DNA of 27,163 nucleotides from a virus (lineage: Duplodnaviria > Heunggongvirae > Uroviricota > Caudoviricetes), in the IMG/VR virus record IMGVR_UViG_2531839527_000008, one strand, 5' to 3'. Below the pieces are notes generated by a model that had not been told where the DNA came from, made no database searches, and was given only the letters and a program-made list of their open reading frames with translations. The stretch's first letter is position 1, and every line of letters begins with the position of its first letter. Shown here one piece after another: positions 7,849-12,906 of this stretch. Both the position numbers and the translations under genes were made by a program.

Positions 7849-10071
7849 TTGGCTGTTCAATTCGCTTATCCGTGGAACGTCCCACGGTCGGCAATCTCCA
7901 GCCCATACCTTACTTATGAGCAACAGCATCGCCGCGACCGTATGTTCGCGGCTTTGCTGCATGCAAAAAAGGTGCTTTCTCTCCAGCCCGACTGCGTGCG
8001 GTTAGATGTTTATCGCACTGCTGCGGTGCTGGAACAAAATCAGGGTAGTCAACGAGCCAATGCATTTTTAATCAGCTTCTGCAAAAAGGCATTGCCGCGT
8101 CTTGAACTGGTCGCAAAAAAATACGAATGCGCTGGTATCAACAGCAAGGTATCAACCGCTGTTTTTGGAAGTCATTTTGATACTCAGCAAATGCAATATC
8201 TGTCGTCACGCATGGTTAATATGGTCGCCCGATATAACCGTCTCCCGGACATGTCGCGCGCTGATGTTGACCTGTTGGCCGCTGATATTGCTAATTTCAT
8301 TCGTGGTGAACTTGCCAACATTAATGACCACGGATTCGGCGAGCTTAAAACGCTGTACACCTGGTATATTCGTGCTGGCTTTATTTCCCTCCAATTCAAC
8401 GTTATCCCACCACATTGGGAGCGGGTTGAAAAAAAATATGTCGGTGCGGATGAAATCGCACCGGCTATCGCCAAAATGTTTAACGATGGGTGGTGGCGCG
8501 GTCGTTTGCGCCGTGTAGCAGCTACGTGGCGCGAACACCTGCAAATTGCAGTCGGCAACGTCAGTAAGAAAAAAAACACTTACGCGAGTAAAAACTGCGT
8601 GACTGACTGGCGTGAACAAAAGCGCCGCACTCGTGAATTTCTCAAAGGTCTGGATCTCGAAGACGAAGACGGCAACCGTATCAGCCTAATTGAAAAATAT
8701 GATGGCTCAGTTGCTAACCCTGCGATTCGCCGCTGTGAGCTCATGACCCGCATTCGTGGGTTTGAAAACATCTGTAATGAGCTCGGTTATGTCGGTGAGT
8801 TTTACACTCTAACCGCGCCGTCAAAATATCACGCCACGACTAAAGCCGGTTACCGTAACAGCAAATGGAGCGGTGCCAGCCCGGCTGACACGCAAAACTA
8901 TCTAACCGGTATCTGGGCGCGTATCCGTGCCAAACTACATCGGGAAGATGTCCGTATTTTCGGTATTCGTGTCGCCGAGCCCCATCACGACGGCACTCCA
9001 CACTGGCACATGCTGATGTTCATGCTGCCGGAAGATGTTGAATATGTTCGCTCCATCGTCCGTAAATACGCATGGAAAGAAGACCGCCACGAACTGAAAA
9101 GCGATAAATCCCAAAAAGCACGTTTCCACGCGGAGTCCATTGACCCGGAGAAAGGCAGCGCAACCGGCTATGTTGCTAAATACATTTCAAAAAATATCGA
9201 CGGTTATGCTCTCGATGGTGAAACCGATGATGAAAGCGGTGAGCTGCTGAAAGAGACAGCCCCCGCCGTTTCAGCATGGGCTGCGCGCTGGCACATCCGT
9301 CAGTTTCAGTTTATTGGTGGTGCGCCGGTGACGGTTTACCGTGAGTTGCGTCGCCTCGCTGATACCGAAACCGCGCACGGTCTGAGCGTTGAGTTTGCCG
9401 CCGTCCATGATGCCGCCGACGCTGGTGACTGGGCTGGTTATGTTAATGCTCAGGGTGGGCCGTTTGTCCGTCGCGATGATTTACAGGTGCGCACACTGTA
9501 TGAACCGCGTACCGAGCTTAATCAGTACGGTGAGGAAACGGTATGTATTAAGGGGGTCTACGATTCCTCCATAGGTGCAGGAAGCCCGATTTTAACCCGG
9601 CTCACTCAGTGGAAGATTGTTCCGAAGCGTGCTGTTGATTTGGCCGTTGACCTTCAGGACGGCAAAGCCGTCCCTCGGAGTTCTGTCAATAACTGTACGG
9701 GAAGCGAAAGCGATCCACCGATACTGGATTTAACAAAACCACTGAGTCGGCGTGAAAGACGAGAATTGACCAACCGACTCAGGAAGCAAAAGCCAGCAGC
9801 ACGGCGAAAATTCATCCACGGAACGGATGAGCAAAACGCAGCTATAGCTAAAACTATCGATGAGATACATCTGACAACCGGCATTAATATCAGCCGGGGC
9901 GAAGCCCTGCACCTGATGGCCGGTGGTAAAAGTTGTTTTGATGGTAAATGGCTACGCGGAACGGCCAAAGGAGAAATATTTTCCGCAGCACCATCGCATG
10001 AGGCTAAAGCTCGGAAAATCCTTAATCGTGTTGCGGCGATGGCTGAAGCATCAAAACCAATACATGAGTAA
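7849..10071 (+). CDS. A: replication initiation endonuclease (P2 gpA / 186 RepA family)
   Basis: 740 aa; TLTAPSKYH, EPHHDGTPHWHMLMF and GYVAKYISKNIDGYALDG motifs; apparent TTG start at 7849 preceded by GGGGGG. Confidence 0.9.
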   Translation: MAVQFAYPWNVPRSAISSPYLTYEQQHRRDRMFAALLHAKKVLSLQPDCVRLDVYRTAAVLEQNQGSQRANAFLISFCKKALPRLELVAKKYECAGINSKVSTAVFGSHFDTQQMQYLSSRMVNMVARYNRLPDMSRADVDLLAADIANFIRGELANINDHGFGELKTLYTWYIRAGFISLQFNVIPPHWERVEKKYVGADEIAPAIAKMFNDGWWRGRLRRVAATWREHLQIAVGNVSKKKNTYASKNCVTDWREQKRRTREFLKGLDLEDEDGNRISLIEKYDGSVANPAIRRCELMTRIRGFENICNELGYVGEFYTLTAPSKYHATTKAGYRNSKWSGASPADTQNYLTGIWARIRAKLHREDVRIFGIRVAEPHHDGTPHWHMLMFMLPEDVEYVRSIVRKYAWKEDRHELKSDKSQKARFHAESIDPEKGSATGYVAKYISKNIDGYALDGETDDESGELLKETAPAVSAWAARWHIRQFQFIGGAPVTVYRELRRLADTETAHGLSVEFAAVHDAADAGDWAGYVNAQGGPFVRRDDLQVRTLYEPRTELNQYGEETVCIKGVYDSSIGAGSPILTRLTQWKIVPKRAVDLAVDLQDGKAVPRSSVNNCTGSESDPPILDLTKPLSRRERRELTNRLRKQKPAARRKFIHGTDEQNAAIAKTIDEIHLTTGINISRGEALHLMAGGKSCFDGKWLRGTAKGEIFSAAPSHEAKARKILNRVAAMAEASKPIHE

Positions 10072-10145
10072 TTCATATCCATATCATGCACATACAGCAA
10101 TCGCTCTATTCGTTTTTTTTCTTCCCATCTTTTGCCAATACGTGC

Positions 10146-10165
10146 TACTGTATAAATATACAGTA
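10146..10165. promoter_or_regulatory. LexA operator (SOS box)
   Basis: TACTGTATAAATATACAGTA: CTGT-N8-ACAG palindrome, 19/20 to the remembered consensus TACTGTATATATATACAGTA; 20 nt upstream of ORF 10185. Confidence 0.75.
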
Positions 10166-10184
10166 ACCCTGTGGGAGGGATTTC

Positions 10185-10367
10185 ATGGTTGGCGAACATT
10201 TCAGCCGAACGCAGCAAAAGTGGGCTTGTGTGCAATTTATTGCCGAGGTATCTCTGATTGCAAACTGCAAGCCATCAGACTTAAAGCTCGCGCTCACTCT
10301 CATTGCAGACCTAGCAAACAGCGAGAATAACGAAACCGAAGATGATAATTTTTATAAGGCTGATTAG
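10185..10367 (+). CDS. small SOS-module protein, possibly N-terminal part of a Tum-like antirepressor
   Basis: Strong SD GGAGGG 5 nt upstream; in same frame as following DinI-like ORF, separated by a single TAG. Confidence 0.5.
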   Translation: MVGEHFSRTQQKWACVQFIAEVSLIANCKPSDLKLALTLIADLANSENNETEDDNFYKAD

Positions 10368-10370
10368 ATT

Positions 10371-10604
10371 ATGAGAATCAATATCACGTTGGATAAAGAG
10401 CAAAAAATTAGTCAGGCAACATTGGATGCACTTGAGGCTGAACTGTACCGCAATCTTCAACCTATTTACCCAAAGACTGCTATCCGAATTCGCAAGGGCT
10501 CCGCTAATGGCGTTGAACTAAGCGGTTTGAAACTGGACGAAGATAAAAAACGAGTAATGGAAATCATGCAGCAGGTATGGGAGGACGATAGCTGGCTGCA
10601 TTAA
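10371..10604 (+). CDS. DinI-family protein (Tum/antirepressor-like C-terminal domain)
   Basis: MRINITLDKEQ...AIRIRKGSANGVELSGLKLDEDKKRVMEIMQQVWEDDSWLH resembles remembered DinI. Confidence 0.8.
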   Translation: MRINITLDKEQKISQATLDALEAELYRNLQPIYPKTAIRIRKGSANGVELSGLKLDEDKKRVMEIMQQVWEDDSWLH

Positions 10605-10606
10605 CA

Positions 10607-10675
10607 AACGCCGCCGGTGCTGAAACTTGCTTTCAGTGCTGGCGGGGTTGAACAACTCGCACCGCGAGGCGCTAG
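10607..10675 (+). repeat. 69-bp repeat element copy 1 (3'-UTR stem-loop)
   Basis: Directly after the DinI-like stop; 60/69 identical to copy 2; contains hairpin CCGCCGGTGCTGAAA-CTTGC-TTTCAGTGCTGGCGG. Confidence 0.6.
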
Positions 10676-10799
10676 TTCTTCCTCTCAAAGTTTCTCGATG
10701 TTTTATTGGTTACACACCAGTGATGAATGGGACGTTACCTTAGCGGGTTTTATAGTGGCGCTGTGGCAGCGCTAAATAAAATTCATTGAGGGCGATAAT

Positions 10800-11009
10800 A
10801 TGCATCGACTACCGGGCGAAATTCCGCAGCACAAAACTAAAAGCATCAAACTGATGGCCATCGTTCATCGTCTGCAGCAGATAATGGTCAATGAGAATTT
10901 GACACCCGCCGAGCTGGTCGGGTGTGCCGAAATAGTCAGGGATAATTACGGCAAGCTGGATAGCATCAGCAAGCCGACACATTACTCACCGCCACCACGT
11001 CGACCATAG
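10800..11009 (+). CDS. hypothetical small protein
   Basis: 69-aa ORF with GAGGG SD; flanked by the two repeat copies. Confidence 0.4.
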   Translation: MHRLPGEIPQHKTKSIKLMAIVHRLQQIMVNENLTPAELVGCAEIVRDNYGKLDSISKPTHYSPPPRRP

Positions 11010-11011
11010 AT

Positions 11012-11080
11012 AACGCCGCCGGAGCTGAAACTCGCTTTCAGGTCTGGCGGGGTTGAACAACGAGCTACGCGAGGCGTTAG
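11012..11080 (+). repeat. 69-bp repeat element copy 2
   Basis: Begins 2 nt after stop of ORF 10800..11009; 60/69 identity to copy 1. Confidence 0.6.
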
Positions 11081-11142
11081 CCGGTCATAGCGTCGCAAAT
11101 ACTTCAACCGTCTGCTGGTTAAATAATTCGAGGTTTTTGGAC

Positions 11143-11337
11143 ATGCAAAATCCCCTTTCATCGAAAAATGACCCGTTTGCCGATTGGGCAAAGAATCTGA
11201 CTTTAATGGCTTTAAATAACGACCTGAGCTCTCGCGAGGGGGAAAGCTACACCGCAAAAATGGTCGGGCAGGCCGGTAAAGATGAGCTATCAGTCGTTAT
11301 CAAACACCTGTTAAATCACATCAGAATGCGCAAATAA
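11143..11337 (+). CDS. hypothetical small protein
   Basis: Internal ATG 11143 with GAGG upstream preferred over ORF-track start 11053, which lies inside repeat copy 2. Confidence 0.35.
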   Translation: MQNPLSSKNDPFADWAKNLTLMALNNDLSSREGESYTAKMVGQAGKDELSVVIKHLLNHIRMRK

Positions 11338-11353
11338 GAGGAACTATATAAAT

Positions 11354-11455
11354 ATGTTATCTCTCGTTTATGAAAATCCGTGGACGACGATTTTTCTGAT
11401 GATTGTTGCCAGCATGTGCCTCAACAGTGTTATTGGCGCATTGCGCGGCCATTAA
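11354..11455 (+). CDS. candidate 33-aa hydrophobic peptide (not on ORF track)
   Basis: ATG 11354 preceded by AAGAGGA; encodes MLSLVYENPWTTIFLMIVASMCLNSVIGALRGH with one predicted TM helix; followed by intrinsic terminator. Confidence 0.3.
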   Translation: MLSLVYENPWTTIFLMIVASMCLNSVIGALRGH

Positions 11456-11474
11456 TCGCGACAAAACCAGACTA

Positions 11475-11503
11475 AAACCGGCACCCTGAATGCCGGTTTT
11501 TTT
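11475..11503 (+). terminator. rho-independent terminator ending the early/SOS transcription unit
   Basis: AAACCGGCA-CCCTGAA-TGCCGGTTT stem-loop followed by T-run. Confidence 0.7.
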
Positions 11504-11663
11504 ATGCCATTTTTCCGCGAATTTCCCGTTTTTTAGTCGTGCATGCATCAGGTGCATGGTTTTGCATGCGTCAGTCTTGCCCGTTCTGTCCGTGCGCCGC
11601 CAGAGCTAGCGCGGATCCAGAGTTGTCATGCAACTGCATTAAAACCGCCCCATAAAGCGGGCA

Positions 11664-11682
11664 GGCGTGGCGGGGAAAGCAT
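11664..11682. other. cos cohesive-end site (P2/186-like 19-mer)
   Basis: GGCGTGGCGGGGAAAGCAT, very close to the remembered P2 cos GGCGAGGCGGGGAAAGCAC; lies between early region and Q as expected. Confidence 0.6.
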
Positions 11683-11901
11683 TGCGCGCCAGCAGTGATG
11701 CGTAATAATAAAAATTATCCTCTGAGCGCGTCGTGATGGCGCTGTCGTGGTCGCTGCTGGTTCGTTGGTGGTCGAGTGTGTTCGTGCGCGTGAGACGCAT
11801 CTGATGCGTGATGGTGGTGTGCATGGAAAAGCCACCAGGAGCAGCGGCTTTACAGGAGTGGCAGGATTCAAACTGCTAATTATGTTTCTACTATGATTAA
11901 A

Positions 11902-12906
11902 CTAATTTACATGTATGTAGAGTTCACCGTCGCCAGACCAATCGGGACACTCTAAAACAAGCCCAAACTGCTTGAATATTTCATCAATGATTATTGTTAT
12001 CTCCCGAAAATCACCAAAACCTGTAATGTGCTGGTCATTAAACTTCCCATAAAGATTCTGAAAAGCAATGCCTAATTCTGATAATTGATATCTTATCTTT
12101 GAGTTGGATAGTGTAAGGGATAGCTTTGGATCGTATTCTTTAATATTGATGTTTAGAGAATGGACATAACCCATCGCATAAGCATAAGAGTTGATGATTA
12201 GCCTGATACGTTTTTTTACTTCAAGATACATGTCATTCAGAGAAATATTACCGTACTTATAACCCCAGATGAGTTTTTCAATCTCGTCAGATACTTCATT
12301 TACAACAGTGTCAAGATTCTCTAAAAATAAATCGACAGTTTCTTGAGGGGCAGACCCCGAAGACATGTAATTAGCGAGATATTCAGACCATGCACGCGTG
12401 GCTGAGATAAGAAGCGCGCTACCATACTCGTTGACTGTAAAGTTTTGGGCTAAGCATGTTAGTAAGTTTTTTTCATGTACGTGCACTAATTCATGGTGAA
12501 TGCGATGGATGACTGCGAGGTATCCTTCTTCTTTCAGTTTTAAGAAGCTACCATCATTGAAAAGCTCAACAAAAAAATCAATCGATAGCACAAGGGTATA
12601 TTCTTCATATAGCCCATCATTGCCAATTTTTGTTACTAACTGCCCGACGGCTGCGCCCTGTTTGCTATTGGTAAATGAACTAGGGGATTTGTGTTGGTAA
12701 GAGGATGTTACCTTTTGAAGAGCTTCACTGAAGTTATAGGAAACAATCACGCATTTTAATTTGGAGATATCAAGATTGAGATTCTTTGTTAAAGCTCGGA
12801 TAGCTTCTAGTGTGAAATTACCGATATTATTTGCTTCTTGCTCAGTAGCGAAACCTTCGAGGGTTATTTTAAAATCAGTTTCCAAAATATTAATCTCCGC
12901 GCCCAT
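11902..12906 (-). CDS. AT-rich cargo protein with HExxH motif (putative zinc metallo-hydrolase), candidate defence/exclusion gene
   Basis: 334-aa ORF in visibly AT-rich DNA inserted between cos and portal gene; IHRIHHELVHVHE with HELVH encoded at 12481..12495 (minus). Confidence 0.6.
   Translation of the reverse strand: MGAEINILETDFKITLEGFATEQEANNIGNFTLEAIRALTKNLNLDISKLKCVIVSYNFSEALQKVTSSYQHKSPSSFTNSKQGAAVGQLVTKIGNDGLYEEYTLVLSIDFFVELFNDGSFLKLKEEGYLAVIHRIHHELVHVHEKNLLTCLAQNFTVNEYGSALLISATRAWSEYLANYMSSGSAPQETVDLFLENLDTVVNEVSDEIEKLIWGYKYGNISLNDMYLEVKKRIRLIINSYAYAMGYVHSLNINIKEYDPKLSLTLSNSKIRYQLSELGIAFQNLYGKFNDQHITGFGDFREITIIIDEIFKQFGLVLECPDWSGDGELYIHVN

Follow-up and report, generated by a model that had tools for sequence, protein, structure and literature searches.

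The closest described counterparts of the element analyzed here are hairpins that follow open reading frames (ORFs) in mRNA, such as the intercistronic RNase III sites of the T7 early mRNA and the REP 3′ stabilizer hairpins of Escherichia coli operons, and the conserved linkers (boundary sequences) that the modular theory of phage evolution (Susskind and Botstein) places between gene modules and that have been discussed for lambdoid phages. In P2-like coliphages, the TO region has reportedly been analyzed by Nilsson et al. in 2004 and by Odegrip et al. in 2006. The sequence of the element was not found in print in the literature searched, and these two studies may have noticed it. The region from gpA to cos is the “P2 hotspot” of defense genes, for which Rousset et al. 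(2022, PMC9122126) proposed that exchange makes use of cos on one side and of another, homologous event on the other. The element lies in this very locus and is a candidate for the second homology proposed in that work, which describes no repeat or hairpin at the gpA-side border. In the 186-like prophage BTP5, no sRNA was reported by the D23580 transcriptome study. The element is unannotated and has no Rfam match, and it combines two known kinds of sequence, post-ORF mRNA hairpins and the linkers of mosaic phages. With somewhat more confidence than doubt, we read it as a cis-acting mRNA hairpin module that doubles as a homology patch for cargo exchange.

Two copies of the element are found in the window, i.e., the whole 27,163-nt stretch of viral DNA that was analyzed, which is a 186/PSP3-like (Peduoviridae) prophage. 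The features of the region, by position and with the strand where one is assigned, are as follows.

3′ end at 10071: gpA replication gene
9670-9689, the strand of the repeats: homologue of the P2 gpA nick site (GTCCCTCGGAGTTCTGTCAA), inside gpA
10146-10165, + strand: LexA (SOS) box TACTGTATAAATATACAGTA, near-consensus with 1 mismatch; 0 expected by chance
10185-10367, + strand: tumA-like ORF of 60 aa (phrog_1993), matching tumA of PSP3
10371-10604, + strand: DinI-like/TumB ORF of 77 aa (Pfam PF06183, DinI, E value 7e-24; phrog_189)
10607-10675, + strand: element copy 1, 92.5 bits with covariance model R1
10607-10649, + strand: hairpin 1 of copy 1, 19 positions, loop at 10626-10630
10650-10656, + strand: linker GAACAAC of copy 1
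10651-10673, + strand: hairpin 2 of copy 1, upper stem CTCGC/GCGAG with the triloop ACC, then AG
10800-11009, + strand: orf69 (phrog_11386, function unknown), C terminus PPPRRP-stop
11012-11080, + strand: element copy 2, 92.2 bits with covariance model R1
11012-11054, + strand: hairpin 1 of copy 2, with one internal G.G; the linker comes next
3′ part of copy 2, + strand: hairpin 2 of copy 2, tandem G.A form CGAGC/GCGAG with the triloop TAC, then AG
11143-11337, + strand: orf64 (phrog_2454), cargo 3′ of copy 2
11474-11500: G+C-rich canonical hairpin with T-runs on both sides, from the terminator scan
11664-11682, + strand: cos cohesive-end sequence of the 186 type, GGCGTGGCGGGGAAAGCAT, 2 mismatches against P2 cos; 0 expected by chance
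11902-12906, − strand: ORF of 334 aa between cos and the portal gene gpQ (phrog_11743, function unknown)

The gene order is tumA-dinI, copy 1, orf69, copy 2, orf64, orf33, the terminator-type hairpin, and cos. The LexA box lies 20 nt 5′ of the tumA-like ORF, and the record of phage 186 annotates the promoter p95 and a LexA site at the equivalent relative position. The LexA box and the gene layout place both repeats inside an SOS-controlled rightward operon, and the entire tumA-dinI-orf69-orf64-orf33 block, both repeats included, looks like an SOS-induced operon resembling that of 186 p95. The hairpin at 11474-11500 is likely the true end of this operon and the counterpart of the 186 terminator t95b. 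It has the shape of a bidirectional terminator, and in “minimal” relatives, the same hairpin is found directly 3′ of the element. The weak, subthreshold Rfam matches to Thr_leader, STnc240, and C0465 all fall on it and look like chance. The 334-aa ORF, separated from the repeats by cos, has a G+C content of 33 to 41%, against 50 to 57% for the backbone; Pfam and PADLOC searches gave no match for it, and it is likely a cargo or defense candidate acquired horizontally. The cargo proteins that neighbor the element had no PADLOC match either.

Repeat finding in the window returned exactly the pair singled out by the sequence-only reading, 10607-10675 and 11012-11080, with 60 of 69 positions identical (87%) at a spacing of 405 nt; by our own estimate, the probability that such a 69-nt pair arises by chance in 27 kb is negligible. 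As that reading had pointed out, both copies begin 2 nt past a stop codon (10602-10604 for the dinI-like gene and 11007-11009 for the 69-aa ORF), and both fold in a strand-specific manner. The predicted folding energies of copies 1 and 2 are −39.4 and −37.8 kcal/mol for the + strand RNA (z scores of −4.7 and −4.3) and −33.2 and −30.4 kcal/mol for the − strand RNA (z scores of about −3). With DNA parameters, the z scores are −4.2 and −4.5 for the + strand and only −1.2 and −1.6 for the − strand. The 15-bp stem attributed to both copies needs a correction: in copy 2, it consists of 14 bp and one G.G mismatch, next to the compensatory position. That position is real, with U-G in copy 1 and A-U in copy 2. 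The helix of hairpin 1 is in fact longer, as AAC/GTT pairing across the conserved G.G extends it to 19 positions, and the 3′ third of each repeat forms or contains a small second hairpin.

The element recurs across P2/186-like phages of Enterobacterales. A BLAST search with an 86-nt query finds it in 66 phage records, including 186, PSP3, SEN1, Wphi, P2-EC58, and phages of Yersinia, Klebsiella, and Erwinia. Of 5,426 complete E. coli genomes, 479 carry it, at one place in the median and never at more than two; in IMG/VR, a pattern scan and a subsequent BLAST search yield 116 copies (84 of them distinct) at 102 loci. In GTDB, scanned with one genome per species and a pattern built on the 3′ half of the element, 33 species are positive; all belong to Enterobacterales, with Citrobacter, Enterobacter, Kluyvera, Pantoea, Erwinia, Mixta, and Serratia among the genera. 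True copies are all in the orientation of gpA, 539 to 2,509 nt after gpA and 408 to 3,693 nt before gpQ, and precede cos; at the IMG/VR loci with gpA or gpQ, all copies lie between the two. Reverse-strand matches represent only the self-match of the palindromic hairpin. A search of the P2 reference genome found no copy, indicating that the function of the element is dispensable. None of the records annotates the element, not even the densely annotated record of phage 186, where it is located between the orf97 stop codon and t95b. The Rfam check suggested by the sequence-only reading found no family for the repeats: a search of the whole window against Rfam 15 gave nothing at the gathering thresholds, and the sole match overlapping the element in a permissive search of 10100-11700 was a chance-level hit to mir-998 (19.5 bits against a threshold of 52).

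Partial BLAST matches initially suggested truncated elements, most of which proved to be complete but divergent copies. Decayed first copies are seen at the IMG/VR loci L020 (1038-1107), L026 (2636-2705), L050 (1832-1901), and L090 (8561-8624). In these copies, hairpin 1 is eroded and the linker and hairpin 2 are recognizable, which suggests that the two halves of the element are under unlike constraints.

Hairpin 1 is strongly supported by covariation. RNAalifold recovered only a fragmentary consensus from a MAFFT alignment, so the structure was set by hand and tested by pair counts. In 74 distinct copies, pairing holds in 92.5% of the hairpin 1 cells, and double changes are seen at 6 pairs; the compensatory series include GU 38, AU 22, GC 11; UG 52, CG 16, AU 3, UA 2; and GC 65, AU 4, GU 4. 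In 53 diverse copies, 94.8% of the cells are paired and two-sided (compensatory) changes are found in 14 of the 18 pairs, in an alignment that was fitted with a covariance model built here and is thus biased toward pairing; sliding the 3′ partners by 1 to 3 columns leaves 22 to 44% paired. In the raw sequences from Serratia, Pantoea, and Mixta, the stem sequence is wholly different and the pairing is intact. The hairpin is more stable on the + strand in 99 of 108 distinct copies (means of −25.5 and −18.0 kcal/mol for the two strands), and G-U pairs number 234 in the + strand fold versus 34 in the − strand fold. The view that compensatory evolution maintains a strand-specific hairpin is thus borne out by pair counts across homologous copies. 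A stem that covaries so freely speaks against an operator bound as double-stranded DNA by a dimeric protein. Judged by its sequence, the hairpin would fit + strand RNA and + strand single-stranded DNA (ssDNA) alike, the fold predicted with DNA parameters being significant as well.

Three other interpretations of the conserved positions were tried and rejected. Coding in another frame, which the sequence-only reading had named as a counterargument, does not agree with copies that differ by 1-nt indels and with variation that tracks base pairing rather than codons. A closing stem AACGCC/GGCGTT around the element was discarded, as position 4 covaries with its hairpin 1 partner (CG 8, GC 4, GU 4, AU 1) and not with the 3′ end. 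The potential LexA box in hairpin 1, CTG-N11-CAG, is one base too long and is not conserved in distant copies.

The 3′ part of the element evolves differently. Its 3′ third, GGTTGAACAAC-(GA or TC)GC-NNN-GCGAGGCGTTAG, is conserved in sequence, the linker GAACAAC follows hairpin 1 in all copies, and GTTGAAC is nearly invariant; the mean column identity of the element is 88%. Strong conservation of the linker and the 3′ part points to a specific partner, such as a protein, an RNase, or the ribosome. A pairing target for the linker was sought in the window as the reverse complement of GGGGTTGAACAAC, which is present nowhere outside the two copies. Hairpin 2 shows no true covariation, and its conservation in the distant GTDB copies is partly imposed by the search pattern. 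Its 5′ dinucleotide is GA in 96 copies, TC in 13, and TG in a single intermediate, opposite a constant GA, which suggests that the hairpin switches between two states, one with a tandem G.A and one with Watson-Crick pairs. Hypervariability in the element is confined to the hairpin 2 loop of 2 to 4 nt. The idea that the 3′ half is a relative of the gpA nick site was dropped, the ori homologue at 9670-9689 being unrelated to the element.

The element coincides with sharp mosaic junctions. With a 1.5-kb megablast query, homology starts or stops at 10604/10607, 10675, and 11080/11081, and in phage 186 and 14 Yersinia phages, the element alone matches the query. The flanks of 106 copies fall into 14 upstream and 29 downstream classes, and 47 pairings of these classes are seen; the terminator-type downstream flank occurs behind 8 upstream classes. 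Between phages with unrelated flanking genes, the element itself is ~85 to 95% identical, and this conservation between unrelated flanks suggests that it is a homology patch for swaps of gpA-side cargo. The sequence-only reading had proposed, as one of several options, that the two repeats bound a small mobile cassette carrying ORF 10800-11009. The border survives, as a border of module exchange with breakpoints on its edges, and the cassette does not: the pair is not specific to this ORF, the element being family-wide in P2/186-like phages and usually present in a single copy.

Variation within the element tells where exchange may have occurred. When two copies share the upstream flank and are followed by unrelated DNA, most of their differences fall in the 3′ half; when they share the downstream flank and are preceded by unrelated DNA, the differences are confined to the 5′ half and the hairpin 2 loop. 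Overall, the 3′ half varies with the downstream flank, and the 5′ half shows a weak link to the upstream one, indicating crossovers inside the element. The comparison of flank linkage reveals a gradient and no sharp single crossover point, which fits scattered crossovers in a homologous patch better than a fixed site-specific crossover. The same data bear on the possibility that the element is a dedicated DNA recombination site, an attC-like border whose hairpin, formed in + strand DNA or as a cruciform, is bound by a site-specific recombinase. We consider this unlikely. The sharp junctions, the attC-like position directly after ORFs, the one-strand fold, and the fit of GTTGAAC to the attC core GTTRRRY would all be accounted for, and the title of the 2004 study by Nilsson et al. 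is said to propose site-specific recombination for the region. However, a phage carries two copies at most, and the majority of cargo genes lack one at the 3′ end; the high mean identity is unlike that of attC sites, which have an inverse core RYYYAAC on the 5′ side that the element lacks; flank linkage follows a gradient rather than pointing to a fixed crossover; and no cognate recombinase is evident.

The 5′ edge of the element is tied to stop codons. In 89 of 99 distinct contexts, the element is preceded at 0 to 24 nt by the end of a frame that is at least 45 codons long, and in 56 of these 99 the distance is exactly 2 nt. The upstream genes belong to unrelated families, such as DinI/TumB, 186 orf97, and the orf69 family with its PPPRRP-stop ending. 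Genes of the orf69 family usually have a copy of the element immediately behind them and, at two-copy loci, almost always lie between the copies, which are spaced by about 390 to 425 nt. The pair in the window thus represents dinI plus an element followed by orf69 plus an element, and its two copies are old paralogues and not a recent duplication. Members of the orf69 family (10800-11009 in the window, 1700-1909 in L003, and 119-379 in L002) end in PPPRRP-stop or PPPRRR-stop. Polyproline and a C-terminal proline before the stop codon, with a hairpin 2 nt later, might constitute a deliberate translational pause.

Such an arrangement could serve to down-regulate the upstream gene, if a hairpin less than 15 nt from the stop codon stalls the terminating ribosome and leads to mRNA cleavage and tmRNA tagging; this stalling effect has reportedly been described for REP elements near stop codons by Liang, Rudd, and Deutscher in 2015. 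The exact 2-nt spacing after unrelated genes, the high stability of the hairpin, and the stall-prone ending of the orf69 family speak for it. We nevertheless regard it as quite unlikely to be the explanation, as it does not account for the conserved linker and hairpin 2, and the stop codon is 14 nt away in the orf97 group and up to 24 nt away in others. It is also compatible with the mRNA hairpin module that we favor and does not exclude it.

At its 3′ edge, the element can be continuous with the next gene. An ORF of at least 40 codons starts 6 to 9 nt after the GAGG of the element in 9 of 119 contexts; eight of the nine, from three gene families (one of them UmuD′-like), start with ATG 7 to 9 nt away, and the ninth starts with TTG. 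These genes have no room for a promoter or a ribosome-binding site of their own, so transcription must run across the element, whose GAGG can serve as the Shine-Dalgarno sequence. No promoter was called within the element, nor between copy 1 and orf69. At L141 (7205 onward) and L147, a pre-truncated UmuD′-like gene, MGFPSPAQDYVE, is fused to the 3′ end of the element and has the GAGG as its ribosome-binding site, a case of SOS mutagenesis cargo in a P2-like prophage. At L007 (~7960-8000), L013, and L088, a consensus SOS box, CTGTATGCATATACAG, is found ~25 nt 3′ of the element; with this box opening one of the downstream flank classes, some cargo has its own LexA-controlled promoter.

It is very unlikely that the element, acting as a noncanonical terminator or attenuator, stops transcription of the early/SOS operon ahead of the cargo. 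It does have a G+C-rich 19-bp hairpin at the place where the conserved rightward genes end, but neither copy in the window has a T-run on its 3′ side, as the sequence-only reading had observed, a U-run follows the element in none of the flank classes, and the terminator scan does not call it. Moreover, the downstream genes that use its GAGG leave no space for a promoter, and canonical terminators lie further downstream, at 11474-11500 in the window and as the annotated t95b in phage 186. The missing U-run and the downstream t95b agree with the read-through seen in the gene fusions. Antitermination, another of the roles suggested earlier, is unlikely too, since t95b, the terminator of the 186 p95 operon, is annotated 24 nt 3′ of the element.

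A role as an ssDNA signal for rolling-circle replication, with lagging-strand priming or helicase loading on the strand displaced from the gpA nick, appears highly improbable. The strand of the annotated P2 nick matches that of both repeats, so that the strand displaced early would carry them; they lie ~0.9 to 1.4 kb downstream of the nick site homologue, in an orientation that is fixed relative to gpA, and their fold is strand specific with DNA parameters. Nonetheless, the P2 reference replicates normally without a copy, some phages have decayed copies, the distance from ori varies with the inserted cargo, G-T wobbles are abundant, and neither the adjacency to stop codons nor the use of GAGG as a ribosome-binding site is explained. 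The absence from P2, the decayed copies, and the gene fusions weigh most heavily against the replication and terminator readings. We give as little credence to the idea that the element is the recombination site of an integron-like phage cargo platform, to its premise that the hairpin folds on + strand ssDNA displaced by gpA in rolling-circle replication, and to its corollary that a recombinase or gpA itself uses that hairpin to capture or swap defense and other cargo cassettes.

Under the explanation that we favor, an mRNA module of two hairpins, intercistronic or in the 3′ untranslated region, that is also a homology patch, the rightward mRNA, here that of the LexA-controlled tumA-dinI operon, would include the ~70-nt element. 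On the + strand transcript, the long hairpin would fold 2 nt past the stop codon, followed by the GAACAAC linker and the small GAGG-containing second hairpin, and transcription continues through the element. Through hairpin 1, the 3′ end of the upstream message might be protected or processed, either by a barrier to exonucleases or at an RNase III/E-type site, and the next gene might obtain both its ribosome-binding site and a structured 5′ end from the 3′ part. The outcome would be conserved phage genes that are insulated from the variable cargo behind them. The 3′-end stabilizer and processing roles named in the sequence-only reading are plausible in this light. The candidate biochemical roles, then, include an exonuclease barrier, RNase III/E processing, a structured ribosome-binding site, and stalling of the terminating ribosome. 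At the DNA level, the element would be the patch of homology where the gpA-side cargo modules of the gpA-cos hotspot are swapped, and stacking of the orf69-plus-element module could have led to the two copies in the window. The data establish the family, its orientation, the structure of hairpin 1 and its strand specificity, the mosaic junctions, and the read-through, and we infer a role in mRNA stability or processing and homologous recombination as the mechanism of exchange.

The gpA-cos region of P2-like phages is a major reservoir of antiphage defense genes and other cargo, and the element is a concrete candidate for the second anchor of cargo exchange, opposite cos. It is kept even between 186-like and P2-like phages that have different neighboring genes, and it represents an uncatalogued structured RNA with unusually clean covariation. 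Being part of an SOS-controlled antirepressor operon, it could affect prophage induction. Run as part of prophage annotation, the covariance model built here could flag the left border of the hotspot automatically. As such, the finding is modest, as hairpins behind genes and conserved linkers of mosaic phages are already known kinds.

Like the T7 RNase III sites and REP sequences, the element is a stable intergenic hairpin of a polycistronic transcript that has no U-run and is read through. With those hairpins, the upstream message can be left with a protective stem at its 3′ end, and the likeness of the element in this respect is a predicted one. RNase III sites comprise about two turns of double-stranded RNA, with which the length of the hairpin 1 helix, 19 positions with one conserved G.G, is compatible. 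In contrast to both, the element adds a second, sequence-conserved half with GAGG. REP sequences are also found in hundreds of copies per genome, as dispersed, imperfect palindromes of ~35 nt in the REP/BIME definition, whereas the element is specific to a phage family, with 1 or 2 copies and a maximum of 2 per E. coli genome. With intrinsic terminators, it shares the G+C-rich hairpin (19 positions, mean of −25 kcal/mol) but not the U-run. The family-wide need expected of ssDNA initiation signals is not seen, given P2 without a copy and decayed copies elsewhere.

The integron attC sites are similar in their location directly 3′ of ORFs, the one-strand fold, the GTTRRRY-like motif, and the association with cassette borders. 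The element differs from them in its high sequence conservation, in having no more than two copies, and in the lack of a fixed crossover point; instead of the inverse core RYYYAAC, it has the 7-mers AACAAAC and AGATAAC, of which only AAC pairs with GTT. As in the linkers of the modular theory, it forms a short, conserved noncoding border with unrelated flanks in many combinations. Unlike these linkers, however, it is a covarying structure with strand polarity, indicating that its conservation has a functional cause beyond recombination.
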